A stretch of 64,000 nucleotides of DNA from Botryllus schlosseri (taxonomy: Eukaryota), in contig CM119372.1 of the NCBI GenBank assembly GCA_051294905.1, positions 3,040,001 to 3,104,000 on the forward strand. Reading direction: 5' to 3'. The position numbers and the translations under genes were made by a program. Positions 631 through 52,882 of this stretch are shown one piece after another. The notes beneath the pieces are model-generated. The model was not told the DNA's origin. It saw only the letters and a program-made list of their open reading frames with translations, and made no database searches. Positions within the stretch are counted from its first letter, which is position 1, and each line of letters begins with the position of its first letter.

Positions 631-685
631 CACTACACTGCATATAAGTTTATAACGGATGGTAAGCCATGCCGTAATCATTCAG

Positions 686-855
686 GGTAACAAGGGCGGT
701 GTTGCCGTCTCTGCGCGGGTGTACGGCCAGCATATTTGCTTTCTCAACGCTCATTTGTCCGCACATCTGACCAACGATGACGGCCGGATCAGCGACGTCA
801 ACGAAATTTACCGGGAAATGAGCTTTCGTGGAAAGGCTACCGTGCAAGACCACGA
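686..855 (+). CDS. INPP5K: Inositol polyphosphate 5-phosphatase (INPP5K/J-like), first exon in window; gene is 5'-partial
   Basis: ttcag|GNKGGVAVSARVYGQHICFLNAHLSAH...QDH|gtaagt. GNKGGV and CFxNxHLxAH are 5-phosphatase motifs; ends in phase 2. Confidence 0.9.
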
Positions 856-29631: not shown

Positions 29632-29821
29632 ATGGCGCGTTCGGCGTCGTTTACGGCATTGCTATTATTTTGCGCCTTGACACCTTCGTTAGGTTTGAAA
29701 TGCAATGAGGGATTCAATATGACTTTGAACGGGATCCCTCTGTATTTTTGGACCGAGCGCGAATGTCGCGAAGACAGCAAGTGCATGGGGCAGGAAATAG
29801 CTATCGGCACGGATTTGGATG
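29632..29821 (+). CDS. Novel Ly6/uPAR-like surface protein, exon 1 (signal peptide and first three LU cysteines)
   Basis: MARSASFTALLLFCALTPSLG-LKCNEGFNMTLNGIPLYFWTERECREDSKCMGQEIAIGTDLD G|gtaagt (phase 1). An acceptor-like ttattttcag lies 28 nt upstream of the ATG. Confidence 0.82.
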
Positions 29822-30498
29822 GTAAGTCGCGTTGATTAGTATCGCATTAACATTTCATTACATATATGAAAATTTGAAGAGCCTCTAGCTAGGAGGTACA
29901 GAACTTCAATATAAAATTGTCTTGGTATATTCATCTTGAAATAAACCCGAATATTTTCTGCTGACTCTCGTCATGGGTAATCGTTAGCAACTAGTAGAGA
30001 ATGGAAAATACCATACAGTATGTTGTTGACGATTACCCTTGCCCAAGGTCGTAACTGCCGCACTCTAAACTCCCTAATTGTGGGGGGCAAATTATTTCGC
30101 AAATCAACATCACAGATAAAGTATTTTTGGGGAGATTCCGCAAAAATTCAAAATTTTCTTCGTGCGATTTCGTGTAGTTTAATGTCTACTTTTTAATATG
30201 GGTACTCGCAGTGCCCCTAGAAAAAAATACGCATATTTTCAGCGCCGGCTGTTACCTCGTCACGACACACCAAGACTGTTGGAGTTTCGGCCAATATGCG
30301 AATTGTGTGATCAAATAAAACCTTGGCCGAAAATTTCATCCGCAAGTTGGCCGAGACCATCAGTATATAATGGGCTGTTCAAAAATAGCTAATTTTCCAA
30401 ATTTCACTCACTTGGATATAAAATTGCCAGGTTTCCTTAACAAACGCTACACACCAAATTTGGGTCGAATCCGACCTGTAACGGCCGTGCAATCTTAA

Positions 30499-31486
30499 AG
30501 GGGCACTGCGCTCTAAATATGATGTGGTCTCAAATTGAAGGGCAAAACGAAAAAAAAAATTTGGCCGCAGCCGTTTTCTTCAGAACGCCACCGTAATGGA
30601 GCTGCAATTTATTGAAATTTCCAGAAACGCACCCGGCTGCAGCTGTCGCGGCTCCGGGTAATTTCTTAACCCGTTACATGGCACGATGACTTCATCGTCG
30701 CACTTGCTGGACGCGATTACGCAGGCACGCAGTGGACGAACTGTAGATAGTTGTCAGCCGATGTTATGAAGCAAATATGTCTTACACGCCAAGGTGGTGT
30801 AGATACGGCGTTCCACGGACGATATTGAAATTTGCACCTAAACGTCTTCATTTTACTTATGACACAATAATGCTTGCACGAACCAAACTGGCTGTCCTGG
30901 ACCACAATGAGAATGTTGGCAGATTTCCTGCGGTGACACAAGAAGGTTTGCTGTGCAGATGTTTGCAAGTCAAGGTACTCAGTTACTTACTCTATATTTG
31001 TTTAAGCAGGTGTTCTACGATACAAAAAAAGTTACTCTCGGTCAGCAAAAGAGTTAATCTTGAAAAGCATGTATGAAAAGAAGACGAACCACTATGCGAG
31101 AGAGCTTTTGAGGAAATAGAATACACTACGCCCAATTAAGAGAAAAATCTGCTGACTGAATATCGTCCGTGGAACGCCGTATCTACACCACCTTGGCGTG
31201 TAAGACATATTTGCTTCATAACATCGGCTGACAACTATCTACAGTTCGTCCACTGCGTGCCTGCGTAATCGCGTCCAGCAAGTGCGACGATGAAGTCATC
31301 GTGCCATGTAACGGGTTAAGAAATTACCCGGAGCCGCGACAGCTGCAGCCGGGTGCGTTTCTGGAAATTTCAATAAATTGCAGCTCCATTACGGTGGCGT
31401 TCTGAAGAAAACGGCTGCGGCCAAAATTTTTTTTTCGTTTTGCCCTTCAATTTGAGACCACATCATATTTAGAGCGCAGTGCCCCT
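30499..31486 (+). mobile_element. Kolobok-like non-autonomous element with 328-bp TIRs and a spliced transposase remnant
   Basis: TTAA|AGGGGCACTGCG...CGCAGTGCCCCT|TTAA, with TIRs at 30499-30826 and 31159-31486 that are nearly identical. The core encodes KRLHFTYDTIMLARTKLAVLDHNENVGR. Confidence 0.8.
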
Positions 31487-32123
31487 TTAAATTAATGGAA
31501 ATTTCGACCATTTTTGAATTTATAGTACCCGTATTTACGGTAAAAAATTTCGGCACTTCGATATGACCAAATATTGTGTTCAAGGCATGCCTGAAGGAAA
31601 AGTGATGCTTTTTTCACGGTTTTACATCTGGATACTGGGTTGCGATAGGGTGAAATAATAAAATTGTTAATTAATTAAAAAATTAATTTGACACTGATTT
31701 GCTGGAAAGGAATCAACGAAATTGAAGTAGTCTCGTTAGAACGATGATGATATATATTAACAAATAAAATACATTTAAGGCTGAAATCGGGCACCATGAA
31801 GAGAAAATGAACTGACGCACAGGTGAAATACAGCTAAATATTTTTCACAGATTATTATCGATACCCGAAAGTATCTTTTTACGTGCCGATGTAGATTTGA
31901 CGACGTTTTGGCTGTTTTCTTCGCAATGCGTTATAATATTTTGGTTTTCACGACTCCTATATACCTCCACGAGGCGAATTACGAATGCGGAGGCATTATT
32001 TTCGAATTTTAGCGGATCTGCATCATCATAGGCCATTTGTATGTGCCGTAGTGAACTCGCGCCAACCAACAATGGAATGCTTGAGGTATGTCATGTTACC
32101 AGTTGGTTGATAATAATGATGAC

Positions 32124-32963
32124 TAGGGCGATTTTTATTGACTTGTCAAAATTGTAGCGTTAGGTAAAAATTTGTCAAAATTGTTCACAAAGTCAAAAAA
32201 TTTTTGACGTCTGCCTTTCGTTTATATCGTAGATTTTGCACTGTCGTTGAACTTATCATTTGATATTTTACAGCTTGTAGCCTACTTTATAGCCCTAACG
32301 CTGTAAACGGCCCATTGTGTGCTCATTGTGGATCATAAACGGTCAAATAAAACAAATAGTTAGACATGGTGTTATGGTCAATGTACCGCAATATCCTAAC
32401 TGAGAAAAGAATTATAAGGCATTGCATCATTCTTATATCAAGAAGCGCATGATGAAAAATTCGGATGTAGACAACATTGTCAGAATGAAGCAACACGGTG
32501 TGTCACCAGCAGTGTACGCACGACTTGAGTGTTGTCAGCGAACAACTGCTACTGTTGAACGTTCGTTCTCCATTATTGGCAAGCTTTTTAGTAAGGACAT
32601 GCACTTTCTACCCAATAATGTAGGAAACTATCTCTCGTTGTACTACACCAAATTTTAGTTATTCCTACCGTAATACTTATTGTAACTACTGGAATTCTTC
32701 ATAGAGCCAGATTTCGTTAAAATATTAGTTTTTTTTCATTTAAAAATTAGCCTGTTTTTAAGCCAAAAACGATTTTTCATGCCAAACTTTTTCGTTAGGA
32801 CAGCCAGTTCTAACGAAACGTGAAGATAAGTGGTACAATTTTAACATTATGTGGGGAAAACTCCTAATTTGCATACGTTAGGTCAAAATTTGATCAAAAT
32901 TCAGTTTGTTTAAGTGAAAGGAAAGTCAAAATTGTCATTTGTTTAGGTAAAAAAATCGCCCTA
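32124..32963 (+). mobile_element. Non-autonomous hAT element with dimerization-domain remnant
   Basis: TIR TAGGGCGATTTTT and perfect TSD ATGATGAC. ORF 32422-32658 contains LECCQRTTATVERSFSIIGKLFSKDMHFLPNN. Confidence 0.88.
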
Positions 32964-33506
32964 ATGATGACATATCTTTCTCATACCAATAATTCTTCTG
33001 AACCACTTCATATCATCCTCGAGATTTGGTGGTGATACAGGACCCAATGAAAGAAAGCACTAGCAAGGAATGGGAAGAGCTAGAACGAGCAACGGCATAA
33101 AGATCAACATTGAAAATGAACTGTGACATTGGGCACTAGGCGGAGGTCGATGTCAGTTTAAGAGACCGCAACTGCGCGTCGTTCGGCATCCTCCAATATG
33201 TTCATTACATCGCATGGTGTCTTATCGCATTGTGTGTGTCTTGATCGGATGGAAATATATTCTCCAGATTATTGTCTTTCCATACAACTGTCTTCACTTA
33301 GCCTAGTAATCGGCAATGCGCTTTATTGCGGAGTTCAGTTATCCACCAGCTCATTTGCTCTGATTACGTGAAGTTCACACTGGTGCGAAAAAAGATATCG
33401 CCTCTATAGTCTACGAAATATATTTTACTGTATTTTAACTGCTTGGCAATTTATTTTCTCTTAATGGTCCCGGATTTCAGTGCTGAAAGTTTGTTTTTGT
33501 GGTACT

Positions 33507-33694
33507 CATGGTGTTTGTCGACTACTATGGTCATTGGTCATTTACACCAGGCCGATATTCTTCATTTTTATTCCGTAACTGCCGACCTCCAACACTTAGG
33601 TACGGGACTTCTGAAGTCGACCTCGGTCGGACTCGAACTCGCAACCCATTGGTGTTGCAGCCGTGGATTATACCACTGCGGTATCTCCATCACT
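33507..33694 (-). mobile_element. tRNA-derived SINE
   Basis: Minus-strand head AGTGATGGAGATACCGCAGTGGTA (A-box-like) ... GAGTTCGAGTCC (B-box), followed by a non-tRNA body. Second copy at ~39968-40237 and a 3' fragment at ~61261-61335. Confidence 0.7.
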
Positions 33695-35338
33695 ATCGTT
33701 GTCACGGAGCTCTTTCGATGTAGTTCCAGCTTATCAGTGTCAAATTCATTTTTTGTTAGCAGTTTCATCATCCAAACTCGATCAAAGGCCTTTTCTCAAG
33801 ATGTAAACGCGTGAAAAAAAGCATCACTTTCCCTTCAGGCACGCCTGGAACACGATATTTGGTCATATCGAAGTGTCGAAATTTTTCACCGTAAATACTA
33901 TAAATTCAAAAATAATCGAAATTTCAATTTTAGGTTGCACGGCCTTTACTGGTCGGAATTGACCCAAATATGGTGTGAAGCGTTCGTTTAGGCAACCTGA
34001 CAATTTTATCACTAAGCGAGTGAAATTTGGAAAAAAAGTAATTTTTGAACAACCCTAATATACATATCATATTTCCAATTGGCCATTGTCCATTGGTACG
34101 GAATAGTCCTGTGCTTGCTATCTGAAGTCACCACTTCCCTCAGCTCTTCCAGTAAATCTGATCACGTGAACTGGGAGACGATGAAAAATTATTAGCAAAA
34201 TATGCACTCACCAATATTATAGACATAGTTCAATCCTTTGTGTGAATTTTTATGGTGCGTCTCCCGACTACGCACATAAATAGACATAGTAGCTTTGACT
34301 GTAAAACGTTCTTTTTTCTGTTAGTGGTGAAATGACCCGTCGTGAAGGGGGGCCTGAATGTCCAAGCCATCCAGAAGTTTGGTTTATGATCATATAGGGG
34401 GCCCAAGACCAACGTTTTAGAGAGGGATGGCCAAGTACTGTATCGGCCCTTCCCTGACGCGTGTCATCCCAAAATATTTTAATATCAATATATCAATGAA
34501 TTTTATATGAAGTTCTGTACCCCTAAGAAGCTCTCCAAATATTGGATAATGTTGTCGAATTTGCAATATCACCGTGACGATATATATGCATGTGTTGTGC
34601 AGGAGTTATCGACAGCAACTGCCGTTGTACAGAATGGGAAAGAACATTGTATAATGTATATCAACAATCGTATCACAGAATATGACTATGCGATGTTGTA
34701 CAAGGTACATATTCATTTGATTCGAATTCCATATAATAACTAATATAGACGTGGCGCACGAAACATGAGATGTTATAAGCGCCATCACTATAACGAGTTT
34801 AGTACTATAATATTACTGCATAACAGTAACACATCATCACACCCCGCGTGCGGTTACATATGTATGAATGCGCCAGGAAGCCAATAGCTAACTGGGTGTT
34901 AATCAGCCTCGCCGGCAGGATTATATTTGATCGCGCAAACATAAAACGTAATCAGCATCCATGCACTGCAGCAATGGCTGATTAGCGACTTAAATCGATG
35001 ATTTCCCCCATAGCTGGACCGACGGTCTTAACACCTTGCTCGTTGCTTTTGGTCGATATAATCAACCTTTGCTGCTGTGTAGGCACGCTGATTAGGATTT
35101 GTATTAAGCTTATTGCTGGCTATGTTTTATTGCGCGAAAAAATCTATTCTTGCAGATGAGTGTGATTAGCGCACTGTATCACGTCCGTTTCCGGGCAGAG
35201 CACAGATGTGACTGCGCAGTGTGCAGGTGCGCACTGTGCATAGTGATGTGTTGGTTCGTTTCCTGTTGTGTGTGTTGGTATTCAGCATACATACAAGTAT
35301 AATCACTATACTGATCGAGGTCAAGTTATACTATAGAT

Positions 35339-37859
35339 CAGTGCTTTTCAACCTTTTTGAGCTTCATTCGCACTTTTTTTTGTAAAATAAATTTCATTCG
35401 CACAAACTTACCGAATATTGATATACAAAAAGAAGACGAAAATACAACATTTATTTGCTCAGATGTGCAACAAATTGGCTATTATGTATCTTAAGCTATC
35501 AAGTGTCTCATGAAAAATGCTACTATTTTCGCTCGTTTTGATTTCAGCTATTCCACTAAAACCCTTCTTTTAGTTAACTAGTGCTTGGATGATCAGGTCT
35601 TAAAGCAGGGGTCACCAACACGCAGCCCGCGGGTTGCATGAGGCGAGCGATGTCATATTTTGCGGCCCGGGATCTGTTTTCAGAAGAACGCCCAGTACTT
35701 AAAGTCATTTCTGTTTAAAAATATTGTCGACGTTGTTCAAAATGTGCTATTCTCCCTTTAGAAACGCGAAGCGCCCTCCTTAAACGCGAAACCCCATCCC
35801 TTTGTAATGGCCCTTCAGACCCTAATACTCGGTTGCAATTCAATAAGTCGTATTATCAGTGTTGCACGCGGCCAAATAACTAAAGGCGTGATACCAATTA
35901 GCGAGATTCGTCATTGCGCATTGCACTGCAAATGTAACTTGACACGAGCGACACGATCTACCGCTGAGATAATAGCGAAATCAGGCCATTTATTGCCGCG
36001 CGCTCGGCAATCGTTGCTAGCCTGATCCATCACGTCTCCAACAGGCCTAGTTCCGCTGTCTTGAATGATGACATCTGCAATTGGCCGTGTGTGCACGATA
36101 TCATCGCTGGCCTACACAATCGCATCTGCATTGACTTAGTGCGCACGATATCATCGCTGGCCTGCACAATCGCATCTGCAATAGGCCTAGTATACGAAAG
36201 ATATCGCTAGCCTAACTACCGCGTCTTGGGCCTACCATACTTTGGCCGGGGCTACGTAAGACGCATTGGTCAGCGCGCGTATTTATTATTGTTCGATGCC
36301 GTGATTAGCGCGGGTATTCAATTGTTCCAACAGATCAGGCAGTCGCTAATTACCACTCTTTCGGTCTCGTCGACAAGCTTATCATACACGTATAATCGTC
36401 AACACGAGGATGTTGTATAGTCGTTATTTACGCATGTACTTGACCCTAATGAATTGATGCTATATTACCAGGGCCGTAACTGCCGCACCCCAAACCCAAT
36501 TTATGCAATATTTTCAAAAATATTTCGCGCTAGGCGCAATTTCAAGTCGCCAAATATCTTAATTATTGGGTGCTCTTTCCCCAAGAAAAAATACGCAAGA
36601 TTGATAGAAATGGGCATATCGGTGTGGGCCATGGCCATTACCGCGGCACGAAGCACAAAGACATAAACCATGCGCGGGGCCTACGATACGATAAGTATCG
36701 TAGGCCCCGCCATGCGACTCCAAGAAGTGTGCCAGAACGATCGCAGCGAGACAAACACACAAGACAAATACCATCCTGCAGGAAAAAATTATATGCCATT
36801 GAAGAAATACCAATCCGAAACCGTGTGATCATTCAGTCTAGTACGTTGGAGCGATTCTATATTTTTGATATAGCAGACAGGAGGTCACGAAATAACATCA
36901 TGTAACGAAGTCATACCAACGGGTCCGCCCGCCCGAAGATGTTCGATCATTATTTACGGACTGTACACTGTACAGTTTCAAAGACAACTCACTCAGTTCT
37001 ACCGGTAAAACTCATTACGTGAGCAGAGAGGACAAGACATTGATAGCAATATATATGCAATTCCCGATCTTATTGACCCATTCTATCATGAATTATCGAA
37101 AATTTTCGCGCTTAGCGCTGGCTCACGGAAGTTCGGTTTATCACCATATGGGGGCCCAGGAACAACGTTTCGGGGGCTGACGAAGTGCTGTTACGGCCCT
37201 GTATATTGCTATATTCGGTAAAAATCGAACCCGCCCCTTTATTTCAACAACCCTCCACTTTTTCTCGGCTGGCTTCGCCGAACAGACAGATAGTCCTGGC
37301 ACAGTGTCGACCCAAAATTATACCCTTTGCGGTATATACTTTAATAACCCCTGAAAGGGTAAAACTTGCGTTACTGTAACTTGCAAATGGCAGTCTGTAA
37401 TGATAGTATTTACTACTGTCCTCGTGCCTAACACTAGTCGAACAGGTATTACGGAAATATTGATGATTGTTTAGCGAAAGTAAGCAGAAAGGGAATTTAA
37501 CGTCATTTTCCCAGTCTCTGACGGGCTCCTATATGTCTGTCACTACACCAGCTTCCAAACCAGGGTTTTTGTTACGTAATAATTATAGTGCGAAAATATC
37601 AATTCACTACGGCTTGTGAGAGCTACGACTAGTGGTGCGTCGTAAGTTAAACATGTTTTCACAATTGCGTCGCAACAACTAAAGTTACACTGCGCTTGAA
37701 TTTCGTATTATGTTTATTTGAAAAGCAATTATTATTCACGATTTTCATTCGCACTCATCCGGGATTTTCATTCGCACCGTTCGCACCATGTTCGTCATTC
37801 GCACTTCAAATTTTTTCATTCGCACAAGTGCGAACCGTCACACAGGTTGAAAAGCACTG
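35339..37859. mobile_element. hAT-type element with nested insertions, including 36469-37201
   Basis: TIR CAGTGCTTTTCAACCT and perfect TSD CTATAGAT. The nested CAGGGCCGTAAC...GTTACGGCCCTG element has TSD TATATT(A/G)C. Confidence 0.85.
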
Positions 37860-38587
37860 CTATAGATAACTAACATACCGTAGGTTAGTTATCTATAGTT
37901 ATACACTACCGGTACTGTACAAATGCCATCTGATCCGACAACTCTAAGCACGATTGAAAATTCTCAAGGGAAGAATCTACTCATATAATAATGATAGAAA
38001 GACGGATTAGCAAACGTAAACCACATATCCAGATCCGTCGGTCCGTTGGTCCTGTAAATCCAAGATTTCCACCAGAGCGTATGCCACCTTTTTGGGATTT
38101 CATGGGGTGGTACACGTCAGGGTGAAAATCTGCGAAATACTACACGGTTTTCGTTTACGTTGTGGTCAGACTTGTACAAGCTACCAATCTAGATAGTCAA
38201 CAGTCCGCCTGCTACTGTTTTGCCGTATTTCTAGTTCTAGTTGCGGATTTCGAAAAGAGAGTAGTTCTAGTTCTAGTTCTAGTTGTGAATTTTGAAATGC
38301 GAGTCGTTCTTGTTCTAGTTCTAGTTGCGCATTTGCCATATATATATAGTTCTATATCGGTAGGCGTGAATTGTGATACCGGTGTTCTGTTGTGTGATGC
38401 TCCTACAGCCATTGCCTGATCGGAGTCGTCACTACTAACAATGGCGTAACCATTTCGAACTTGTAATGCGGTTCATGTGGAAAGCTGCTCCGATTCCGAT
38501 AAAAAATAAATTAATAAGTTGCTTTGGCAGTTAATCTATAGTTATTTGTATTCTATTTATTTGCGGAATTTTAAGGGTGTTTGCAAG

Positions 38588-39883
38588 CAGAGGTGGTCAG
38601 TAACGAAGTACTTCTACTTTTTCGAAGTACTCAAGTAGTATTCCTCTACTTCTGGTACTCACTCAAGTAGATCTGATTTTAGCTACTTCTACTCCTACAT
38701 TTCATAATATTTTGTGATCTACTTAATTACTTTCCGCTATTTCCAGTTTGTTAAGTAGAAGTAGTTTAATCCTCCAATCAGGAAGATATCCTGGGGAATT
38801 TCGGGGCTGTTTTTACGGTGTATCAACATTTAATTTTCATAAAAGTTGAGTAAAGTCCAGAATTTCCGTCGCGCTTTGCGCTCAGTAGCTACGAAGTAAC
38901 CACTATGATCTCACGAAAGTATCGGTGAATATAATTTTGGTAGCGGGTTGGCGAGGTTCCATTCACACCGCATTGTCGCCCTTTGCTCATATGAAATATT
39001 TCGCCACAGTATATATAAGGCTCATCGTAACGTTTGAAACTGATGTTTCGCAATCTAGCGTTTACTTAGCATATCGTAATCTAGCAGTCCATGGCGCGCC
39101 CTAATCTGGAAAAGTGAACTCTGATTTTTTTTAGATTTAGAGCTGTTTTAGCATACCACCTTTGAAACTTTCTGTCTTTAGACATGAAATATATATTCCG
39201 CTTTCAGAAGTAGTGGTTATGTTTCACTTTCAATTCCCAGTATCATATACTTTTGAGTTCCAATTAATATCAGTTTCTTTGTCTCGATAACATACATGTT
39301 GAAGTATAAAAGCAAGCGTAGTAATGCATTTAATATCCGGAAATAAAGTTACACAATATGGCATTTTACGACCCACCATATTTTTTGTTAACGTTCGCTA
39401 ATCGCGCAAAGTATTCACACCGTATCCTATACAACTTCTCCGTATTGCTCTTCGACTAAACTACGTCCCTTATAATATGGGTGAGTGCGCCAAACCATCA
39501 TATTTTCTAAAACGTGATGTTCGATTAAACAGAGGGTTAGTATCGCCTTTCCATATCAATACTATCATTTGCATTCCAGCGATGGAACGAATGCTTATGC
39601 TGTCGAAAATTGGATACCTCCTGGTATGCATCAATATGAATCAATCTCGGCACCTTTCGCGTAGCCCAATTTGCACCTTTTGACAATCCATGCGAACGAA
39701 TTACGATTGTTTTCACAACTACTTAATGACTTGAGTAGATTTAAAGTCAGTCAATTCTACTTCTTCTTCAGTTAGTTTTAGGTTGCTTACTGAAGGAGTA
39801 CTTCTACTCGTACTCGGGTAGTTTTTTCGTCGCTACTCCTACTTCTACTTGAGTAGCTTTCTTGACTACTTTGACCACCTCTG
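38588..39883. mobile_element. hAT-type non-autonomous element with AAGTA/TACTT subterminal repeats
   Basis: TIR CAGAGGTGGTCA and TSD (T/G)TTGCAAG. Confidence 0.8.
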
Positions 39884-39967
39884 GTTGCAAGTTTTGAAAA
39901 GTGTGTAGTTCTGGTTCTAGTTGCGATAATTGAAAAGTGAGTAGTTCTAGTTGCGCATTTGTGGTAT

Positions 39968-40237
39968 TGATGGTGTTTGTCGAATAAAATATGGTCCTTC
40001 ATACCCCAGGCCGATTTTCTTCATTATAATTCAGTTTCGGCCGATATTTAGCAAGGGCCCACTTCTAGGCTTTTTTTTGAAGACACGGCTTGCGGAAATG
40101 GGATGACGAGGAGAAGCGTATAGATAAACTTCCAACACTTCGGCAGGAATTCTGGAGTCGGCCTCGGTCGGACTCGAACTCGCAACCCATTGGTGTTGCA
40201 GCTGTGGATCATACCACTATACGCTTTATCGCCACTA
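39968..40237 (-). mobile_element. tRNA-derived SINE, second copy
   Basis: Shares CCTCGGTCGGACTCGAACTCGCAACCCATTGGTGTTGCAGC with the 33507-33694 copy. Confidence 0.7.
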
Positions 40238-40300
40238 CAGTATAGTTTGTAAAAGTCTGGTTGTGGTATATAGTTGAACGTTGTGACGTGCCATTTTCAG

Positions 40301-41031
40301 GAAGCTCGTTCCAAACAGCTATGCGATATGGAGCGTGCGTGGGCGCCGCGTACGGTGATTACCTCGACTGCCAGAATCTCTTTGGAGAAGACAGCAATTT
40401 CGATCCTGCAAATCTCCTCGACATCATACCCGGAATCGAAAAGGGCATCACCAATGCAGTTGCGGATTTCAGTCAAGATGTTTCCGCCTCTTTATTGCAA
40501 TTGCTGTCCGACGGAACAGGGATAGAAGCGTTCGTGAACGGAGCCTTTGATTTTTATCAAAATCTGGGGCTTAATCTGACTGAAGCTGTTCCTCTGAAAC
40601 CGTCGCTTGTTAAAATGTTGTCCGTATCGTTAAATGCAACGGACCAGGATGGTTTCGACGCCCTGAACGCAGCAGTTTTAGAGTTTTTCACCGCGTTTTC
40701 ACAGTTAGACACTGGAAATGATGAGTTTTCCGCAGATTTACGCACCTTCATGGCAAACATCGGCGTACAGTCTGATGAAATCACACCTTATGCGGCGCTG
40801 ATCGATAAAGGCCCAGGATTGTTTCGATCGTTGTTTCCCGCGAGCTGGCAATTGAATCTTTGGTACGATGTGGCTATCAAACTCGTAGGCGACATAGACC
40901 CGAGTAACTGGACAAAGACGACGGAAGATCTGGTCGGTACTATCAAGTCTTCGTATGATATTCCGTCAGAGATATCCGGTCTGGTGAACGTATTTTTGGA
41001 TGCAATGCCAGACCTCGCGAAAGGTTCACAG
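40301..41031 (+). CDS. Novel Ly6/uPAR-like surface protein, exon 2
   Basis: ttttcag|(G)SSFQTAMRYGACVGAAYGDYLDCQNLF...DAMPDLAKGSQ|gtaata. Phase 1/0; 731-nt open frame with coding-like composition. Confidence 0.88.
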
Positions 41032-42267: not shown

Positions 42268-42433
42268 ATGAATCCCGCATACGTCGGTGTCTGGTCGCTT
42301 GAACTACTAAAGAAGTACAGCCAGCAAGACAACGCGACTCAGGCTTTTTCGACAAGCCTTATTAATCTGATTGAGACAATGACGAATGCGACGCTGCCGG
42401 ACGAAATTCTGACTACGATCCAATGGATACCAG
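42268..42433 (+). CDS. Novel Ly6/uPAR-like surface protein, exon 3
   Basis: ccacag|MNPAYVGVWSLELLKKY...EILTTIQWIP G|gtaaga; phase 0/1. Confidence 0.85.
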
Positions 42434-42607
42434 GTAAGATATTAGCAAACTTTACAAGCAATAAGTCATCGATGTATTGCAAAAATATTTTCATGTTCCA
42501 ATTCCGGGTAGAAGTACAAAATTTACACGTCCCTCGGCACATTGATACAATGTTGGCTACTAATACCGAATAACCTTAGGATCTGTTATTCTAGGGTTAC
42601 TATACGT

Positions 42608-44125
42608 CAGGGGTCGGCAACCTTTTGCTAGTCACGGGCCAAATTTCGAGTGTACAACTTTTTGGCGGGCCGGACGTTTTCTTGATACTATATTTTCCGC
42701 TCACTTCGGTAAATTATCCTACATTGCTGCAATCTCAATCATACCAACCATAAAACACATGTATTTACGTTTCAACAACGCAGAATAAATATGACAATTG
42801 ACGCAGCTTGCTTTGTGAAAGGTTTTCAATTTCTGGTAACAGTCAGATGAAGCAAGAATCAGACCCTATTCTAAATGGGCGTCCGAGATACGTGATCTTA
42901 GCTTGCTCTTCGTGAATTTCATTGTTCAAAACTATTGCTCACATGCGTACGTGCTGCTAAAAATCGATGCGATGTCTTTTGCATAGTTTGATAAGCTGGG
43001 ATGAAGATCAATTTCAAGAACGTACTCTTTGTCAAAGTCATGCAGCGATAGGCTATGCTCTTTGTATGAAATTTGTCATTCAATCCAAGTGCATCGCATT
43101 TCAAAAAGGCCTATATGAAATTTTCAGACAATGGTATTGGCGTCCACATTAAATGGAGCACTGAATAGTCAGAATTTATTTTGTATAGAAGGAATGTCGG
43201 AAAAGCGGTTGAATATTCAGTAATTAAATTTCGTATCACAGTTACCAATATAGTGTTGGTACTAGGTTTTCTCTCCTCCAGTATAGGAAAGTGATAATAA
43301 TTTACTCTGTACTGTTGACATTCCCCGAGTCGCAGATTTGTTTCAAATGCGCCTCAACATCTCATGTATTCAGTTGTCCACCCCCCCTCCCCCCGAAGTT
43401 GCAAATTCAATTTGTTCAGATGTGACATTAAATGTACCAGGAGAGCCAGATAAGATACCCATTTTCTATTACAAGATTATGAGTCAGCGTTATTTGTATT
43501 TTCGAGGAAAGTTGCTATTTCATTTCTCAGTTCATAGACTGGTGCAAGCATAGCTGCTCGACTTGATGCGCGAACATGTCAGACATACATTACATCGCCA
43601 TATTTATTCTATGCTTCTAGTTATCTGTCGTAACAATGTTGGTGATTCAGTTTCTGAGACAAAATCATATTTACAGTTTTAATCATTGTGGCCAAAACAC
43701 TTCAGGTTTGTAGTATTGGCGCACAATGCCTTCTGGTGAATTAAACTATGAATAACTAGCCTACGGAGGCTAGTTATCTGTAATCAAACAGTTTAAGTTT
43801 GAGATTTTGTCATTGCGTCTGAGATGTTCCAAGCGTTTTTTAGGCAGAGGAAGGACACCTTCGGTTGCGAGATGCACACGATTGATAAGCACTGATCTAG
43901 TCTACTCTAGCTTCATCTCCTACTCCAACCGCTTTCGTTTTGTGGCGTCACAATAGACTAATACGATGTAGGCAAGTTATCAATGCCGAATTCTTTCCAA
44001 GCAGTGCTGCACTGCTGATTGAAACTCATTGTGAAACGGCGGGCCGCAATCTTGTGATAACTAATTATTATGTCGCGGGCCGGACGATTTCGCTTGGCGG
44101 GCCGGGTCCGGGTTGCCGACCGTTG
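42608..44125 (-). mobile_element. Charlie/Buster-like hAT remnant
   Basis: TIR CAGGGGTCGGCAACC / GGTTGCCGACCGTTG and TSD CTA(T/C)ACGT. The decayed minus-strand frame reads IFSSTYACEQ*F*TMKFTKSKLRSRISDAHL (hATC motif). Confidence 0.82.
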
Positions 44126-44336
44126 CTACACGTCATCCTTTAGGAGGATTTGTTCTCTCTTTGAAGAAATTTCCTCCCTTCGCCCGAATGTCCTACTTTT
44201 CGACAATTTTTCCTCTTTCTTATACTAAAATGTCAAAAAATACCATGAAATATGTTAAATTTTTGTCTAAAATATAGACGCGGAAGTCAAATTTGAAAAT
44301 TGACCTTTTTGTTAGTCAACAGCACAGAACTATAGG

Positions 44337-45695
44337 CAGGGTTGCCATTGACATAGATCCAAAAATAAGGACAGTCGAAAAACTAAATTAGTTATAAAAG
44401 GCGTTTTTGTACATACGTTATATTTATACGAGCCGTGGCATATCTCATTCACACTTTTCGTCGGAAACAGCCTGCTCCAGCAACTCCTTGTTAGTATAAA
44501 GTGCTTCATGGATCGCACGATAGCTCAGGTCTCGGTTTTACCTTTACTCAGGGCCGAAACAGCACTTCGTCAGACCCCCGCCCCCCAAAAAAATCGTTGG
44601 GCTTGGGCGCCCCATAGGGTGATAAATCAAACCTCTTCACCTCGTTGTGATTAGATGCGTCAACCAAGAAAGAAAAAGACTGTACTATAGTGTACGTACA
44701 CCAAGTTTAGACAAAATCGTTTTTGTGCACGGAGCAAGAACTCCAGTAACATTGTTGCTTGTAGTTTTGGTCCTGGCCGAAGCAAACTTATTTGCGATGT
44801 AAGAATCGGGAATATTGCTTTGAACAATTGCGATGTGCAATCATTGGGGCGGAATGATTCTTGGTGTTTGCAGTATGGGATGCCTAAGTACCCTCAGCAG
44901 CAGCTGCCTTGTCTGTAGTCGTTGGTGCTGATATACTTGTGAAAATATTATTCATCGAATGGCTCGAATTATTCATTATGACACACTTCTTGTATTTTTG
45001 GGTATCAATATGACTTAAGATAGCGGCCTCCCGGTTAATGTCACAATTGTAGATATTACAATGTGCGAAACACTCGCCCTTCAGCTTCAAGCTTCGTTTG
45101 ATACCTTTGAATTCACTATCATAATCGCCACGAAAAACCTTTTCACGCCTGCTCATTTTAACCAAGCCGATTTTGCCTTACTGGTAGCTAACACTATACG
45201 TAGCCCACAATATAATTTAGATGAATTTATCAATGATTTATAGCTTTACTTTTTAACCCACGTGTCGACGCCCTTTTTCAGTACGCAATATAAACGATGC
45301 CTTCCCCGCAGCTTGTTCTGCTGTAGACTAAACAGCAGAAACCTGGTACTGCTGTTTACTGCTAAAATGACGTCCGCTGCGATAGCTTGCTACAGCCTAA
45401 ACTGCTACATCACTCACTGCCCTAGCCATCGCAATACTTCGAAGTCAAATCCTGTGGTGTGTATACGCCACGGAAGTTACTTTCAATTGTAATGTCGCAA
45501 AATCTGGAAGCAAAAGCATAATTTTAGAATATTATGCAACACGGCTACCAGACAGAAACGATCGAAGGTCTGTAGTTGTTGAAAATAAGACAAAATAAGG
45601 ACGCCAGTCGAAAACAAGGACATTTCTTAGAAATAAGGACGTGGCTCTTCAAAATAAGGACAAATCTTAGAAATAAGGACGGTATGGCAACCCTG
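44337..45695 (-). mobile_element. hAT remnant with N-terminal BED-like transposase fragment
   Basis: TIR CAGGGTTGCCAT and perfect TSD ACTATAGG. ORF 44884-45165 reads FAHCNIYNCDI...SHIDTQKY...AAAEGT. Confidence 0.8.
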
Positions 45696-45859
45696 ACTAT
45701 AGGTAAAAAGTGGGTAATTCGGGAGTCGAGCCACGCAACAACATTTCCAGTAAACATTTCAAAATCAGCTGTTTTCAATTTCGGCAAACTAACTTTTGTG
45801 ATTTGGTAGAAGTGTCCTCCTTTCCCGACTACAAAATATGGTAACCCTATGTTATTCAG

Positions 45860-46140
45860 GTCTGTTCTATGAAATCGCACCCGGAGACAAAGCTATTGTC
45901 CAAGAAGTCTATCGACGGATGACGGACGGGATCAACTCGTTCAAAGATTTCAATTCAACTGCTCCCGAAACGAAACTTAGCATGATGATCAAGACGTTGA
46001 TTTACGCTTTTGGGGGAAGCGCGCAATTCGAAGCGGTACCCATCTACAATGCGCTGGTCGTCAACTTGTCGAAAATGTTCTACGACCTGATGAATGTCAC
46101 TAACGTGGATTACACGGGTTTTTTAGACCAGTTCTCGATG
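45860..46140 (+). CDS. Novel Ly6/uPAR-like surface protein, exon 4
   Basis: tgttattcag|(G)LFYEIAPGDKAIVQEVY...TGFLDQFSM|gtaggt; phase 1/0. Confidence 0.85.
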
Positions 46141-46780
46141 GTAGGTAATGCAGCGTTTTGACGTTTGAAAATAGATTTTCGGGCTCATCATGATGAATAT
46201 ACTATTGCTATTCAATCTTAAAACTATAACGCAAAGCGACTGAATGACGCTACAAATAAGTGAAATCTCCAAATATATGTCAAGTTACACAGCGATACAC
46301 AAGCTATTTCATGCGGATTATATGACAACTTAGCTCATAAGATTGATGCAAACTCAAGCTAAAACTAGTTTATACTATTCAAAATCAAAATTGCAAAAAT
46401 TACGTATTAGTTTTCCCTAAAAACTGTTCACGTTCAAGTGGAATTAGTCTCAAAAGTGAGGGGTGCAATACTAGGCAAAACATACTTTGTTACTACCAAC
46501 AGGTAGAAGTAGTTCGTTACTGACCACATTTGTGTTTAATATATATATTGAATATCAAATGTGACATATAACTACACACCTGCATAGTCTCAGGAAACTC
46601 GTGATAATCGTACCCCAATATCGTATCTGTGTTTGGTCGGTAGACAATCGTAACACGGTGAGGCAAAGTTAAAGTTAATATATGCGATACACCCCGATGA
46701 ATGCAATCCATGGTCAATTTATATTAGCAACCTCTTCCACGGGGAAAATAATAAACATTGAGACTAGCATGGTTTTACAG

Positions 46781-46903
46781 GTTATTGAGGAAGGGTTCAA
46801 AAATGGGCCGGCTGTCAATGTCGGAGAATTGATCCCCAATGTATTACTTATCTTCGGAGGCACCGTACCCATGGAGCTGAAACCGATCCTCGACAATTTC
46901 CAG
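46781..46903 (+). CDS. Novel Ly6/uPAR-like surface protein, exon 5
   Basis: ttttacag|VIEEGFKNGPAVNVGELIPNVLLIFGGTVPMELKPILDNFQ|gtgctg; phase 0/0. Confidence 0.8.
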
Positions 46904-47697
46904 GTGCTGTATTTAGGAGTTCCATCCATGATCTGAGAAAAGATCGCTAATTATTAGGAAGTTTATCTGCATAACACTGTTTTGGAAGTTCGTTCGGCGT
47001 CAATGCGCCGTCAGAGCAGACTTGGGCGATCGATAGTCCTAGTTGTCTGAATCGAGTGAAATGCCGATAATCCAATTCCAATCTAAATTTAATCCTAATC
47101 TAATTTCTAGTTTTACTGAAAATGGTACCGTAAAACTGTATAGTGCAAAACTAGGGTTACCATACGTCCTCTTTTAAGAGGATTTGTCCTTTTTTTTTTA
47201 AAGTGTCCTCGGAGGACGCCCAAATGTCCTCTTTTTGAGATTTTGTCCTCTTTTTTGAAAATTTTTATGTATGGCAAAATTGACTTCGATACAGTAAATC
47301 AGCACTGAAGTAACAATCCGGACTTTTTTTTTGGTCAACCGACCACGATGTGGGAAAAATTGACCGTTTTTTCAGGATTTTTCCTCCGGTTTTGCAAGTC
47401 TGAAAATTTTGAAAAAGTGTCCTCTTTTCAGATTTCCAAAATATGGTGACCCTAGCAAAACGAGCAAAACTTGCTGTGCAGACCTTTGCCATTCTCATGC
47501 TAACAAGAGTGAACCCTGGTTTGATATGAATTAACTTGATTTTTTTGTTGGATCTCCGTCTAATTCGACTTTGATTCAAGTCAAAGTTTTTTAAGCATTC
47601 ATTAATTCTAATTCTAATCTAAGCGCGACTAAAATTCTAGTTCTAATCTACTTTGGAAAAGCCGAAAATTTTCTCTATCTGTCCAGCTATGTATCAG

Positions 47698-47942
47698 ACG
47701 AGTCTTCTTTACTACCAGAGTATCATCGAGTCAGCTACCACTGGAAACTTCACAAAACTCAACAAATCAATCGACAGCATCATCGCCAGTTACGAGGACG
47801 CATTTCCAGGGTCCCCGTTTCCGGAACTAATAGGACGCGGTGTGAATTTAACATTAAGACTGATCGTTTCACCCGAAGATGCTGCCGAGGTTAATTTACA
47901 GCTGCAGTACTGGCACGTGGAATTGCAATTTGCAATTATCAA
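47698..47942 (+). CDS. Novel Ly6/uPAR-like surface protein, exon 6
   Basis: atcag|TSLLYYQSIIESATTGNFTKLNKSID...LQYWHVELQFAII(K)|gtatgt. Phase 0/2; boundaries chosen for phase consistency with the neighbouring exons. Confidence 0.75.
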
Positions 47943-48097
47943 GTATGTTTTCCTGAATCAATTATATCACTGTTTGGTGAATGTTACATCCACTTAAAAA
48001 GGGAATCACATGATCTTATCTTATAGTTACTTGACGGCTTCCAGATGTCGCAAGATGCATCTCAGCGACTAACAGAGAATGATTAATGAGTGATCAT

Positions 48098-50287
48098 TAG
48101 GGCAAGTTTTTGCAACTTTTGCAACTTTTTTTAAACCTTTCGACATGCTTCGTAATTACTCAGAATCTACGTATTATGGTGTTTTAAGCTGTTCGGAGGG
48201 ATTTTATAGTGCAACTTTTTGCAACTTTTCTCTATTTTTCATAGCCAGGTTTACAGCAACTTTTATCAAATATTGCGTCAAAATGTGAAGGAGTTATTTA
48301 AAAACATGCTATGCACTATTCCTAGCATGGTTCTGCTCCCTTCTCCCTTCGATGTGCATAACAAAGACCTGTATGATGGGTTAGCTGCATCTCAGTGTTA
48401 TCTGTGACACAATGGAGAGAAGTTCACCTCCACCTTCCAAGCAAGACGGTGCCCGAATAATATGTAAATAGATCGCTTTATTAATTCTGTCGTTTAAAGT
48501 TGAAATGGTTTCCCATTTCACGAACGACCGGGCGAGACCGCCGAAAATTACATTTTCACTGGGTCCCCTACTTCAGGCTATTGATTTTGTTAAAGTCGCC
48601 AAGTGCCGAGTTTTTCTGTAATGTCATTGGTCAAGATTGTAGACCTAGGGGGTGGTTTGGGGTGTGCAGGGCCGTAACAGCACTTCGCCAGGCCCCCCCA
48701 AAACTTTGGTCTTGGGCCCCCCATATGATGATAAACCGAACTTATGGGGGGCTTCGCCCCCCAGACCCCCCCTCACGCTGTATCCTGTACGCCGTTATCC
48801 GCTACTTATCATCTTTCATGGGGCTCCGTTGACTGGGTACGCTTTTCTCGCCTAAACGCGCGAAGCGCGAAAAATTATGTAATTCGTGATTGAATCGGTA
48901 AATATGATCGTGAATTGCATACGTATTGCTATCAATTTTTACCCTCTCTCTGCTCACCTAATCAGATTTACAGGTAGAGCTGAGTGAGGCGTGTTTGAAT
49001 AGGTAGGACCCCTCAATAATAATTAAACATCTTCGGGCGTATACCCATTGTCAGGAACGAAACAGCACTTCGTCAGACCCCTAAAAAAATCTTGGGTCTT
49101 GGGCTCCCATAGGGTGATAACCCGACCCCCAATGACGTTCGCTTTGCCACGAAATTAGTCGTACTGTTTAGTGAGCCAGCGCCAAGCGCGAAAATTTTCG
49201 ATAATTCATGATACAATCGGTCAATAAGATCGGGAATTGCATATATATTGCTATCAATTTCTTGTCCTCTCTGCTCACGTAATCAGATTTACCGGCAGAG
49301 CTGAGTGAGGAGTCTTGGAAACTGTAGGGCCCGTTGGTATGACTCCGTAACATAATGTTATTTCGTGACTTCCTGTCTGCTATATCAAAAAATATAGAAT
49401 CGCCCAAACGTAGGCTACTAAACTAAAAGACACACACGATTTCAAATTGGTATTTCTTCACTGGTATATAATTTTCCCCTGCGGGATGGTATTTGTCTTG
49501 TGTGGTTCAGATTGCCAAGACAGGAACATTCGGCGTCAGTCATTTAGGCGCTTTTGGACAATTAAACCTACATGTATTTTGTATATATAACGAAGTTTTC
49601 GGTCAGCATAAGGACGGTCCTTTTCGGCCAAGGTTTTCTCACTGCCGATCGTTCTAGCACATTTCTTGGAGTCGCATGTCACATGGCCTGAAACTTTATA
49701 TGTCTTGGTATATCGTGGCGCGATAATGACCAACGCAAATACACCCATTTCAATAATCTTTTTTTTTGCTTATTTTTTTTTTTGGGGGGGGGGGGGCAAG
49801 AGTACTCCAAAATCAAGATATGTGGCAACTTGAAATCGCGCCCAGCGCGAAAAAATTTTGAAAAAGTTGCATAAATTTTCAAAAAATACTCTATAATTTA
49901 TGCTAATCCACGAAATAATTTTGGGCCCCCTTCGAGCTCGGCCCCCCCCAATTGGTAGGTTTGGGGTGCGGCAGTTACGGTGCTGGGGGTGTGTTATTCT
50001 ACTTGTTTTAGGGGGAGGGGGTTATCGCTATGCTGTTTGGAATTTCTTGGGGAAATTATTATTTATTTTTTTGCTGGTTTTGTCAGACTGTTAAATGACG
50101 AAGTAGCAAATTTGACAACTCTGCAGTAACTAGGTTATACAACGAAGCCTTTCTAATATCACATATCCTGATAATTCAACAAAAAATATAATTGCAACAA
50201 AAAATAAAAATGCAACTTTTTGCTACAACTTTTGTTAAAATTAAATGCAACTTTCTCGCGATTTTAGTGCAACATCAACTTGCCCTA
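48098..50287. mobile_element. hAT-type element with a nested CAGGGCCGTAAC element (48667-49985)
   Basis: TIR TAGGGCAAGTT and TSD GT(G/C)ATCAT. The nested element has TSD GGGGTGTG. Confidence 0.8.
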
Positions 50288-50768
50288 GTCATCATACACG
50301 AATAGATGTGAGAGATCCCGAAAGCGTTTTCCGTCATCGTCATGCACCGGCTCAGTTGTTCTCATAATAAGTACGCAAATCCGTCGAAACGCTGTACTTT
50401 CTACTTGAAAAAAGTAACAAGGAAAAACTTTAGCAGGAAATGCTGTTTATGCATTCGTTGTCTCGAGAACAAATTGGGTCGATATTACGAATAATATTGC
50501 TATATACAATTGCATGTTATATTGGTGTTGAAGTAAACCCGAATATTTACGGCTGGCACTCGTCAGGGCTATTATCTTCAGTAGCTACTAGATAATTGGA
50601 AAGAACATCGTATTTGACATATAATGTTGTTTTCTGCTAGTTGTTGACGATTACCCCTGACGAGTATCACCGGAAAGATTCGGGTTTATTTGAACAGGAA
50701 TACAAGTCCTGTACCTCCAATAATCTTAACAATATTTCTAATTGGCCGTTATCTGTGTCTCATTTCAG

Positions 50769-51023
50769 ATCTACAAACTACAGCGCCGATGAGCTTTTCC
50801 AAATGGCGACAGCCGCATGGCCAGATTTCGATCTCTATATCCGCACGCTAAAATCCATGAATCCCGAGGATGTTGAGGGGTTGATGAAAGCCATCACGCT
50901 CTGGGCGAGCAACGGGCCGTACACTACGCAAGGATTCGTGGACGCTACCAAGCCTGTGTTTATGAATATCACAAAATCAATCGAAGCCTTACTTGGGGAA
51001 TTGAGACAATCATTCACGCCAAG
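50769..51023 (+). CDS. Novel Ly6/uPAR-like surface protein, exon 7
   Basis: atttcag|(K)STNYSADELFQMATAAWPDFDLY...LLGELRQSFTP(R)|gttggt; phase 2/2. Confidence 0.85.
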
Positions 51024-51544
51024 GTTGGTACACTTCTTTCTTTTGGTGAGTTTTATTCATTAAACACGAGATCGCAAGAATGACACTACTGCTGATGCCC
51101 GATATCGCAAATCCGCTGCAAAACAGCCATTATGCAATGTGCATGGCTCCTGGTGAGAGTATGCATATCATTTTGTATGTTTTATATCGGGGGCGGGCAA
51201 TCGCATAAATATTCCAAGGTACGTTGTGCTTATAACTGAATAACTATTTGTTCAATAATTATCGGTTTAATTGAACTGTAGCAGGCTTGGAACAACTTTC
51301 CTAATCTGACAAATTATACATAATCTACTGTCTAATTTTAATTTGACTGTCATATCCAGCTTTCCTGAAAATGCTACAGGAGAACTGTATATTGCGTAAC
51401 AAGCCAACGTTAGTGTGCAGACATTTGCACAGCTCATGCAAATGGGAATGAGCTTTGATTTGGTATGAACTGGACTTGATTATTGTTGTTCAAGTTGAAG
51501 TTTCTTCATAAAATTTTGTCACTTCAAAACATCACAAGACTGCA

Positions 51545-52485
51545 ATACAATGAATGATAGGAAGATGCCGAAACGACTAGGAGTAGTCTTGAGATCAGAC
51601 ACCCACCTGGGCCTAGGCGATGTAAAGAGAAGGCATGCACACTAGGGCTGTTCAAAAATAACTTTTTTTTTCGGATTCCAGCCATTCACTGATTAAATTG
51701 TCAGGTTACCCTAAAAAAACGCTGCACACCAAATTTGGTTCGATTTTAACAAGTATAGGACTCCGCAGATCCAATTAAAATTTTTAATTTATTATGGAAA
51801 ATTAAAAAAAAAAAATTTCCAGATTTTTCTGCCAACCCCATGAAATTATTGAGCTGTCTTCAAAGACGTTGCAAAACAAATTTGAGTCAATTCTGACCAG
51901 TAGAAGCGGAGTTATGTGAGTTTTTCGTTGATAAATCGCGGATTATCCACCGATCAAGGATAATCTGAGGATTATCATCGAAAAACTCACATAATTCCGC
52001 TTCTACTGGTCGGAATTGACTCAAATTTGTTTTGCAACGTCTTTGAAGACAGCTCAACAATTTCACGGGGTTGGCAGAAAAATTTGGAAATTTTTTTTTT
52101 TAATTTTCCATAATAAATTGAAAATTTTAATTGCATCTGCGGAGGCCTTTACTGGTTGGAATCGAGTGAAATTTGGTGAGCAAGGTTTTCTACTGCAACC
52201 TGACGATTTAAGAGGTGACCGGCTTGAATCGGGAAAAAATGTTATTTTTGAACAGCCCTAATGCACACTGAATGAAAATATAAGAAGATAATATAAAGTG
52301 GCAAGCGATAAAATCAGGTGGCAAGTGACGAAAGGCGAGATCGATATGTCAGGTCGTGGTCCGGTAAATGGTGAGGGCTGACTAGTATTCATCCAGCAAA
52401 AATTGCTGGTATTTCGACTTGAATGCGGACATGCTCGACGACTGTCGGATAGCCGGCGAGATGCTGTTCCACACTTCAGCTCCGT
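51545..52485 (-). mobile_element. 3' fragment of the same CR1/L2-like LINE, split by a palindromic MITE
   Basis: 51545-51642 and 52261-52485 align with ~16707-17030. Confidence 0.75.
51643..52260. mobile_element. Fully palindromic MITE, TAGGGCTGTTCAAAA family
   Basis: ~300-bp inverted arms meeting near 51950; perfect TSD ATGCACAC. Confidence 0.9.
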
Positions 52486-52599
52486 GCTTCTTTCTAATCA
52501 GAAATTTAATTCAATTTTGAAGTATTTGCGAATTATGATTCTACTCTAAATTTGGATAAGTGGAAAATTTTCTCGTCACCCGACTCTGAGCTCTACCAG

Positions 52600-52882
52600 G
52601 AAACAGGAATTGTATTTCTATCAAAAATTGCGTTTCTTCGTCAACAGCTTGTGCAAGTTTGGATCGTGTGTCACTGATCTCTGCAATACGCAGACCTACA
52701 TCACCGAGAGTCAAGTCTTTACAGACATGCCAGCGACCAGTGCACCAGCTGCGGAGGAGACCACTGGATCCAGTCTGACGCAAGCCGTAATGGCCACTAC
52801 CAGCGATGGGCAAACACCGAAGCGTTACACGCTGACGAATGTAGCCGTTGTGATGACAGCAATGTTCAGCATGCTTGGATGA
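52600..52882 (+). CDS. Novel Ly6/uPAR-like surface protein, exon 8 (LU terminal motif, S/T stalk, probable GPI signal)
   Basis: ctaccag|(R)KQELYFYQKLRFFVNSLCKFGSCVTDLCN-TQ...TTSDGQTPKRYTLTNVAVVMTAMFSMLG*. The phase 2 acceptor matches exon 7; total CDS is 2274 nt. Confidence 0.85.

Follow-up and report, generated by a model that had tools for sequence, protein, structure and literature searches.

The window analyzed here, a stretch of 64,000 nucleotides from Botryllus schlosseri (assembly GCA_051294905.1, contig CM119372.1, positions 3,040,001 to 3,104,000, forward strand), contains a transcribed and spliced eight-exon gene whose 734-residue product probably has a distinctive architecture, namely a three-finger (Ly6/uPAR-like; LU) domain in which finger III, as judged from structural modeling, has given way to a nested all-helical domain of ~570 residues. 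The three-finger or LU domain is a well-studied small extracellular fold found in snake toxins, CD59, uPAR, Lynx, GPIHBP1, and the TGF-beta receptors, where it is generally regarded as a compact, loop-presenting binder. The split version of this fold proposed here is supported by transcripts, family conservation, and predicted structure. If correct, the exchange of one finger for a domain that exceeds the scaffold seven- to thirtyfold in size would mean that extreme nesting is compatible with this fold, and such nesting would account for the failure of linear sequence profiles to recognize the family.

Gene structure and transcript support

The gene on the forward strand of the window (29632..52882; Table 1) was first drawn in an earlier note made from the sequence alone, in which eight exons were joined in frame, with GT-AG ends at all seven introns and matching phases, into an open frame of 757 codons followed by a stop. 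The RNA evidence, comprising a raw RNA-seq run (X23) and contigs from three further runs (X9, X1, and X5), was mapped to positions 33101-53100 and covers six of the seven junctions, with the junction of exons 1 and 2 lying outside this interval. Four of these six junctions (41031|42268, 42433|45860, 46140|46781, and 47942|50769) are confirmed as drawn, the third with three polymorphic letters at the joint, whereas the remaining two require different acceptors. That of exon 6 moves from 47698 to 47719, shortening the exon by seven codons (21 nucleotides; four X23 reads with two starts, and contigs of X1 and X5), and that of exon 8 moves from 52600 to 52648, shortening it by 16 codons (48 nucleotides; six X23 reads with five starts, and contigs of X9, X1, and X5). 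Both corrected acceptors are preceded by good pyrimidine tracts, and the residues dropped by the two corrections are also absent from the homologues, which at the start of exon 8 display L-R-x-x-F-x-P-x-x-C-K without the extra 16 residues. Hence, the gene and its GT-AG introns stand as originally proposed, but two acceptors are revised and the product is shortened to 734 residues. A single spliced X1 contig of 2008 nucleotides starts in exon 2 and continues downstream of the stop codon; with transcript contigs joining exons 2-8, exon 8 does not belong to another gene. The 3' untranslated region extends at least to position 53091.

The long first intron (29822-40300) measures 10.5 kb as against 0.07-3.6 kb in the paralogs, and two bins within it (33101-33767 and 38437-39103) show a summed contig depth of 700-830 in X9 with many loose ends, which points to repeated or transposon-derived sequence within this intron. 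Divergence between the X1 contig and the window is uneven along the gene, with four of 565 and two of 168 letters differing in exons 2 and 3, and 16/280, 10/120, 18/228, 11/253, and 10/391 letters in exons 4-8, respectively. Among the 16 coding differences listed, ten are synonymous and six nonsynonymous. Either a divergent allele or gene conversion between the tandem copies may underlie this pattern.

Cysteine frame and targeting features of the protein

Apart from a cysteine in the signal-like segment (position 14), the corrected protein has exactly eight cysteines, five close to the N-terminus (24, 45, 51, 76, and 87) and three close to the C-terminus (659, 664, and 669), separated by a cysteine-free gap of 571 residues. 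The uncorrected 757-residue model shares the first six of these positions, including that in the signal, and places the last three at 682, 687, and 692. Accordingly, the eight mature cysteines and the 5+3 pattern claimed in the earlier note hold good, but its gap of 594 residues and its C-terminal cysteine positions give way to those above. The C-terminal cluster occurs, as previously read, within the motif CKFGSCVTDLCN, and its residues 659-670 conform to the pattern C-x4-C-x-x-D-L-C-N. The fourth and fifth cysteines are spaced by 11 residues.

The other proposed landmarks of a surface protein are likewise present. The 21-residue signal-like start ends in S-L-G immediately before L-K-C, which occupies mature positions 1-3; 14 N-x-S/T sequons are distributed over the corrected protein; and a Ser/Thr-rich stalk (48 residues, 17 of them Ser/Thr) precedes the C-terminal tail. 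The C-terminus itself consists of S-D-G, a seven-residue polar spacer, and 16 hydrophobic residues (mean Kyte-Doolittle value 1.64), with no cytoplasmic tail. Small residues followed by a polar spacer and a hydrophobic end without a cytoplasmic tail constitute the layout of a glycosylphosphatidylinositol (GPI) signal, and from this layout we infer that the window protein is probably GPI-anchored.

A family with a constant cysteine frame and a variable insert

A protein search with exon 2 against 1.84 billion representatives recovers 11 proteins at the cut-off of E ≤ 0.001, nine of them with E ≤ 1e-10. The named relatives are all computer-annotated 'uncharacterized protein LOC...' entries of Styela clava with no function assigned, viz., LOC120342120 (P0027), LOC120338161, LOC120343116, LOC120342692, and LOC120342139. 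Other relatives include a 762-residue product on a 2489-nucleotide contig and a 696-residue product on a 2172-nucleotide contig, contigs whose lengths leave no space for introns. The best full-length relative is P0027 (758 residues), which shows 41% identity over 722 columns and aligns from residue 1 of the corrected protein. In a word-index search of exon 2 against longer proteins there was no match, and the ESM Atlas gave no usable match to exon 2 or the insert. The helical domain, for its part, is uncharacterized, has no detectable Pfam or PDB relative, and is apparently restricted to tunicates.

The homologues carry both cysteine clusters in one protein, the 762-residue product among them. 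The five N-terminal and three C-terminal cysteines are retained in the window protein, P0027, P0011, P0012, P0013, P0017, P0026, and P0019, and this frame is conserved among members down to 27% identity. Among the relatives, the gap between the two groups measures 582, 606, 620, 623, 630, or 704 residues, rising to 2446 in Styela P0019. The check for conserved cysteines around a variable insert proposed in the earlier note is thus borne out, with the 5+3 frame found in all full-length members examined and a gap ranging from 571 to 2446 residues. Further cysteines inside the insert vary between members. The N-terminal piece of the putative three-finger domain (hereinafter N-module; its C-terminal counterpart, C-module) shows eight residues invariant in 13 of 13 aligned rows (C24, G27, N29, P36, W40, C45, C51, and Q54); the motif C-x-E/D-G-x-N and the three cysteines encoded by exon 1 are equally invariant in 13/13 rows.

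At least 11 loci of the family are present in the window's own 495-Mb genome (Table 1), and exon 2 has eight paralogous matches there. Even the tandem paralogs show only 48-57% identity in exon 2, pointing to rapid divergence of the helical domain. A comparison of the insert with itself gives a weak signal of internal repetition, blocks 211-330 and 331-460 aligning with an hhalign probability of 81 over 48 columns, with values of 36 or less for the other nine of the ten block pairs.

Several relatives depart from the basic organization. Styela P0020 (1398 residues) and P0028 (1397 residues) combine the N-module, insert, and C-module with GPS (PF01825) and 7tm_2 (PF00002) domains in place of the tail; these models would be either a real adhesion G-protein-coupled receptor (GPCR) ectodomain or the product of merged neighboring genes. 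An older version of one of these two models consists of the GPCR part alone (705 residues). The 2494-residue locus L008 appears to correspond to Styela P0019 (2634 residues), in which the 5 + 3 cysteines surround the 2446-residue insert. The divergent member L009 combines a typical N-module exon with a 364-residue open frame, in which the conserved R-Y-G-G-C at the start is followed by a highly dissimilar insert, and, further downstream, with an exon that carries a C-x4-C-x4-C-N motif. In the short proteins P0014 (269 residues) and P0018 (262 residues), the first 100-150 residues of the insert are joined directly to its last third with the middle skipped; they could represent short paralogs or products of alternative splicing.

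No description of such a nested architecture was found in the accessible parts of the literature on three-finger/Ly6 proteins of ascidians and on domain insertion, nor was any paper found that mentions the Styela LOC identifiers. A term search of the available portion of PMC13719153, which deals with invertebrate LU domains, returned no occurrence of tunicates, Styela, Ciona, or inserts.

Predicted structure of the proposed split domain

An AlphaFold2 model was obtained for P0027, the 41%-identical homologue of the window protein, from a 13-row alignment, with a mean predicted local distance difference test score (pLDDT) of 80.2 and a predicted template modeling score (pTM) of 0.51. After the signal helix, the model displays four N-terminal strands (23-32, 35-44, 49-60, and 63-74; pLDDT 74-81), followed by an insert of ~30 helices from 75 to 684, mostly with pLDDT 85-95, and then a C-terminal strand (689-695; pLDDT around 77) that contains two of the three C-terminal cysteines and is assigned to a sheet. 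A disordered stalk and a terminal helix complete the chain. As the sole other strands of the model lie within 23-74, the strand 689-695 can pair only with the N-terminal sheet, and the two cysteine clusters are thereby predicted to pack into one sheet in this homologue, in keeping with the split fold envisaged in the earlier note. The N-module of P0027 folded alone (residues 1-95) yields the same four strands.

A fold search with this N-module against 48,161 representative chains, run without a prefilter, is headed by three-finger proteins. Ranks 1-13 (Z 5.4-4.1) are led by TEX101, Prod1, Lynx1, GPIHBP1, CD177 (twice), PSCA, and Lynx2 and also include a short alpha-neurotoxin, another three-finger toxin, SLURP-2, mambalgin-1, and kappa-bungarotoxin. 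Among the best 50 rows listed, 26 are proteins of this fold, counting CD59 and five TGF-beta-family receptor ectodomains, which we take to be three-finger domains. The alignments to small single-domain proteins miss the last ~10-17 residues of the target, covering, for example, 1..63 of 74 residues in Lynx1, 1..50 of 61 in the neurotoxin, and 0..61 of 78 in CD59; going by the model, the missing segment is the strand that in this family is supplied after the insert. When the whole P0027 model is used instead, 79 of 80, 80 of 83, and 80 of 81 residues of the GPIHBP1 LU chains are aligned (Z 7.0, 6.8, and 6.7; root-mean-square deviation 2.8-3.0) to model positions 21/22..708/709, compared with 66 residues and a Z of 5.2 for the N-module alone. 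This gain from 66 to 79-80 residues suggests that the N- and C-terminal pieces together rebuild a complete LU domain in the model. The helical insert, in turn, recovers just generic helical hairpins in the whole-model fold searches (residues 524-606). A complex prediction pairing P0027 residues 21-95 with 678-715, run without an alignment or controls, scored 0.02 against a mark of 0.34, and we count it neither for nor against the split fold.

Alternative interpretations

The split domain presupposes that both cysteine clusters belong to one gene product, and the exon 1-2 junction, which spans the 10.5-kb intron and falls outside the mapped reads, leaves room for a gene-prediction artefact in which exon 1 derives from a different gene than exons 2-8. 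However, we regard this as highly improbable. A 217-nucleotide RNA contig matches the window only from position 40300 on, beginning at its 31st letter, and the 30 letters ahead of this point are non-intronic. Exon 1 itself shows homology to the N-terminal part of full-length members of the family (55% identity to P0027 residues 7-57, E 1.6e-11), consistent with the alignment of the corrected model to P0027 from its first residue. Exon 1 also has a separate match upstream of exon 2 in each of the tandem paralogs, and the three paralogs at 21.5 Mb have a phase-1 intron at the same place that is only 103, 660, and 71 nucleotides long. Together, the contig, the exon-1 homology, and the phase-1 introns of the paralogs support the junction indirectly, from outside the reads. 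Granting a single protein, the two pieces could still be structurally independent, with the N-terminal 65 residues forming an autonomous, degenerate three-finger-like beta domain followed by the helical domain, and the C-terminal cysteine triad acting as a separate knot or hinge before the stalk; the LU likeness would then have been learned by AlphaFold2 from the C-x4-C-N pattern. In line with this possibility, the N-module adopts the same four strands without the C-terminal piece and finds LU proteins alone, the canonical adjacent Cys-Cys is absent, no sequence profile ties either piece to LU, and the confidence values of the C-terminal strand and of the whole model are limited.

A broader set of observations also weighs against assigning the protein to the LU fold. 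At E ≤ 0.001 there is no Pfam match for the eight exon pieces or seven full-length homologues (the best row, CD59 PF25152, has an E of 0.5 and a score of 10.5 bits, the cut-off being 33.9). A PF00021 (UPAR_LY6) search of the animal's own genome finds four other loci, none of them in the window, and searches of PDB sequence profiles with the family alignments give no match. When the family alignment is compared with a canonical LU exon from the animal's own genome, the hhalign probability is 1.5, and a word-index search of the N-module profile against short proteins retrieves two fragments that belong to this family itself but no canonical LU protein. On the structural side, Foldseek has no match at E ≤ 0.001 for either the whole model or the N-module model, its LU entries being C4.4A at rank 3 (E 0.45) and CD177 at rank 26 (probability 0.90, E 1.0); the fold-search Z values of 5.4-7.0 are modest and fall in a range rated as middling, values under 8 being common; and the model itself concerns a 41%-identical homologue with a shallow 13-row alignment and a pTM of 0.51. 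Since a split domain may defeat linear profiles, the profile failures lower the proof of membership but say little about fold likeness. Against structural independence of the two pieces, the 5+3 parity, kept down to 27% identity, argues for a bond between them; strand 689-695, alone after the insert, could pair in a sheet with nothing but 23-74; and the C-terminal piece extends the GPIHBP1 alignment to a whole LU domain. The parity argument is suggestive only, as some paralogs have an odd number of extra cysteines in the insert, implying that free cysteines are tolerated. On balance, two independent modules appear unlikely, and a three-finger domain with a nested helical insert is the probable architecture. 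This same architecture could also exist without a GPI anchor, in a secreted protein or in a tail-less transmembrane protein held by the C-terminal hydrophobic segment. The Styela model P0011, whose C-terminus has no hydrophobic tail, and the two models with GPS and 7tm_2 domains lend themselves to this alternative, and they indicate that members of the family differ in how they are attached. However, the window protein itself ends in 16 hydrophobic residues preceded by S-D-G and a short polar spacer, and P0027, P0012, P0013, P0010, P0019, and P0026 share this kind of hydrophobic ending, a layout characteristic of GPI signals. For the window protein, an unanchored form is accordingly quite improbable.

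Proposed organization and function

With the nested three-finger architecture as the preferred interpretation, we propose that the 734-residue protein would enter the secretory pathway, become heavily N-glycosylated, and be displayed on the cell surface. Residues 22-87, with five cysteines, would form fingers I and II, and residues 659-670 would supply the last strand together with the remaining three cysteines. The two pieces would thus make up a disulfide-stapled clasp at the membrane-proximal base that ties both ends of the helical domain above the stalk and the GPI-type signal. If all eight cysteines are paired, the 5+3 split requires at least one disulfide to cross between the modules; the map that we infer comprises C24-C51, C45-C76, C87-C659, and C664-C669, of which C87-C659 would be the crossing bond. 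Such an explicit disulfide map is a testable prediction. The helical domain, being large, fast-diverging, and expanded among the paralogs, would be displayed outward as the working surface.

The variable and expanded helical domain, its multiplication in the giant relatives, and the GPS and 7tm_2 fusions together suggest that its role is most likely in extracellular binding or recognition. A lipid or another hydrophobic molecule is also conceivable as its ligand. Our confidence in any such function is much less than that in the architecture. Among the closest invertebrate relatives of vertebrates, this family is a candidate surface-recognition system in view of its tandem expansion, fast divergence, and possible adhesion-GPCR link. 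As a tentative and more far-reaching possibility, Styela-type tunicates might possess a lineage-specific family whose three-finger fold has given up the role of binding head and acts instead as a disulfide-locked socket for a helical domain of 570 to ~2450 residues, an insert that would be by far the largest on record for this fold. Held by a GPI anchor or carried by an adhesion-GPCR stalk, this ectodomain cassette could then represent a new class of chordate surface receptors in tandem arrays, possibly involved in cell-cell, gamete, or self/non-self recognition.

Features of the locus and its neighborhood

The features of the gene, the other family loci of the genome, and two neighboring genes are collected in Table 1. 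The latter are long single open frames that encode a 697-residue homologue of CEP76, with all four of the CEP76 Pfam domains (E 1e-16 to 8e-54), and a 397-residue homologue of TMEM237 (E 5e-42), and are adjoining centrosome/cilium genes that both appear to be intronless.

Table 1. Exons and encoded segments of the window gene, family loci in the genome (positions prefixed C2, C3, or C6), and neighboring genes; other positions are those of the window
Feature	Position	Strand	Remarks
Exon 1	29632..29821	+	Start codon; signal-like 21 residues (29632-29694); start of N-module with Cys24, Cys45, Cys51; ends in phase 1
Exon 2	40301..41031	+	End of N-module to ~40371 (Cys76, Cys87), then start of helical insert; acceptor used in RNA contig
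Exon 3	42268..42433	+	Helical insert; both junctions in spliced contigs
Exon 4	45860..46140	+	Helical insert; X1 contig
Exon 5	46781..46903	+	Helical insert; transcript evidence
Exon 6, corrected	47719..47942	+	Acceptor 47718/47719; joint 46903|47719 in X23 reads, X1 and X5 contigs
Exon 7	50769..51023	+	End of helical insert; ends in phase 2; joint 47942|50769 in X1 and X5 contigs
Exon 8, corrected	52648..52882	+	C-module, stalk, tail, stop; joint 51023|52648 in X23 reads, X9, X1, and X5 contigs
C-module CKFGSCVTDLCN	52652-52687	+	Exon 8
Stalk, 48 residues, 17 Ser/Thr	52688-52831	+	Exon 8
Hydrophobic tail, 16 residues	52832-52879	+	Exon 8, followed by stop codon
Tandem array, four loci	C2:3.07-3.18 Mb		Window gene is the first
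Three compact genes	C2:21.5 Mb		Most of insert in one exon
L008, 2494-residue intronless open frame	C2:13439473-13445652	-	Several insert-like modules in succession (query residues ~170-430 matched repeatedly)
L009, divergent member	C6:12774200-12784100 (12.78 Mb)	-	
Two N-module exons	C3:22.10 and C3:22.15 Mb		
CEP76 homologue	11083-13176	-	
TMEM237 homologue	14474-15667	-	

Comparison with known three-finger proteins

The closest comparison is with the Styela clava relatives, which are true homologues and share the 5+3 cysteine frame, helical insert, stalk, and tail with the window protein, but differ from it in the length of the insert and, in some models, in the fusion to GPS and 7tm_2 domains. 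The ectodomains of the TGF-beta/activin/BMP receptors present a more distant parallel, in that the three-finger fold is there used as the ligand-binding head of a membrane receptor, and those of ALK3, BMPR-IA, ALK1, BMPR-IB, and BMPRII match the N-module with Z 3.5-3.0. However, they rank below the Ly6/uPAR proteins, and are contiguous small domains coupled to a transmembrane helix and a kinase, with no nested domain.

LU domains are compact and contiguous, with ~70-90 residues, and their canonical frame has a cysteine at mature position 3, eight or ten cysteines in all, and a C-terminal C-C-x4-C-N; in the eight-cysteine version the disulfides connect cysteines 1-3, 2-4, 5-6, and 7-8. The window protein resembles the Ly6/uPAR proteins (GPIHBP1, CD59, Lynx1, TEX101, and CD177) in its signal peptide, the L-x-C that places a cysteine at mature position 3, the eight-cysteine frame ending in C-x-x-D-L-C-N that is conserved across its family, the finger I/II beta hairpins, the superposition of the homologue model on the whole LU domain of GPIHBP1, and the Ser/Thr stalk followed by a hydrophobic, GPI-like C-terminus. 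It differs from them in that the domain is not contiguous, with 571 helical residues (2446 in a Styela relative) in the place of finger III, and in that its family has no LU or other Pfam profile match; the adjacent Cys-Cys of the canonical frame, which becomes C-x4-C in this family and counts against LU membership, and the 11-residue spacing of the fourth and fifth cysteines are further departures. Thus, of the hallmarks of an LU domain, the three-finger beta fold is found in the AlphaFold2 models of the homologue, whereas a profile match and contiguity are not. With its two pieces 571 residues apart and no profile match, the window protein is a variant rather than an ordinary member of the LU group, one that, judging by these models, folds like the Ly6/uPAR proteins and, by its sequence layout, is probably targeted like them.

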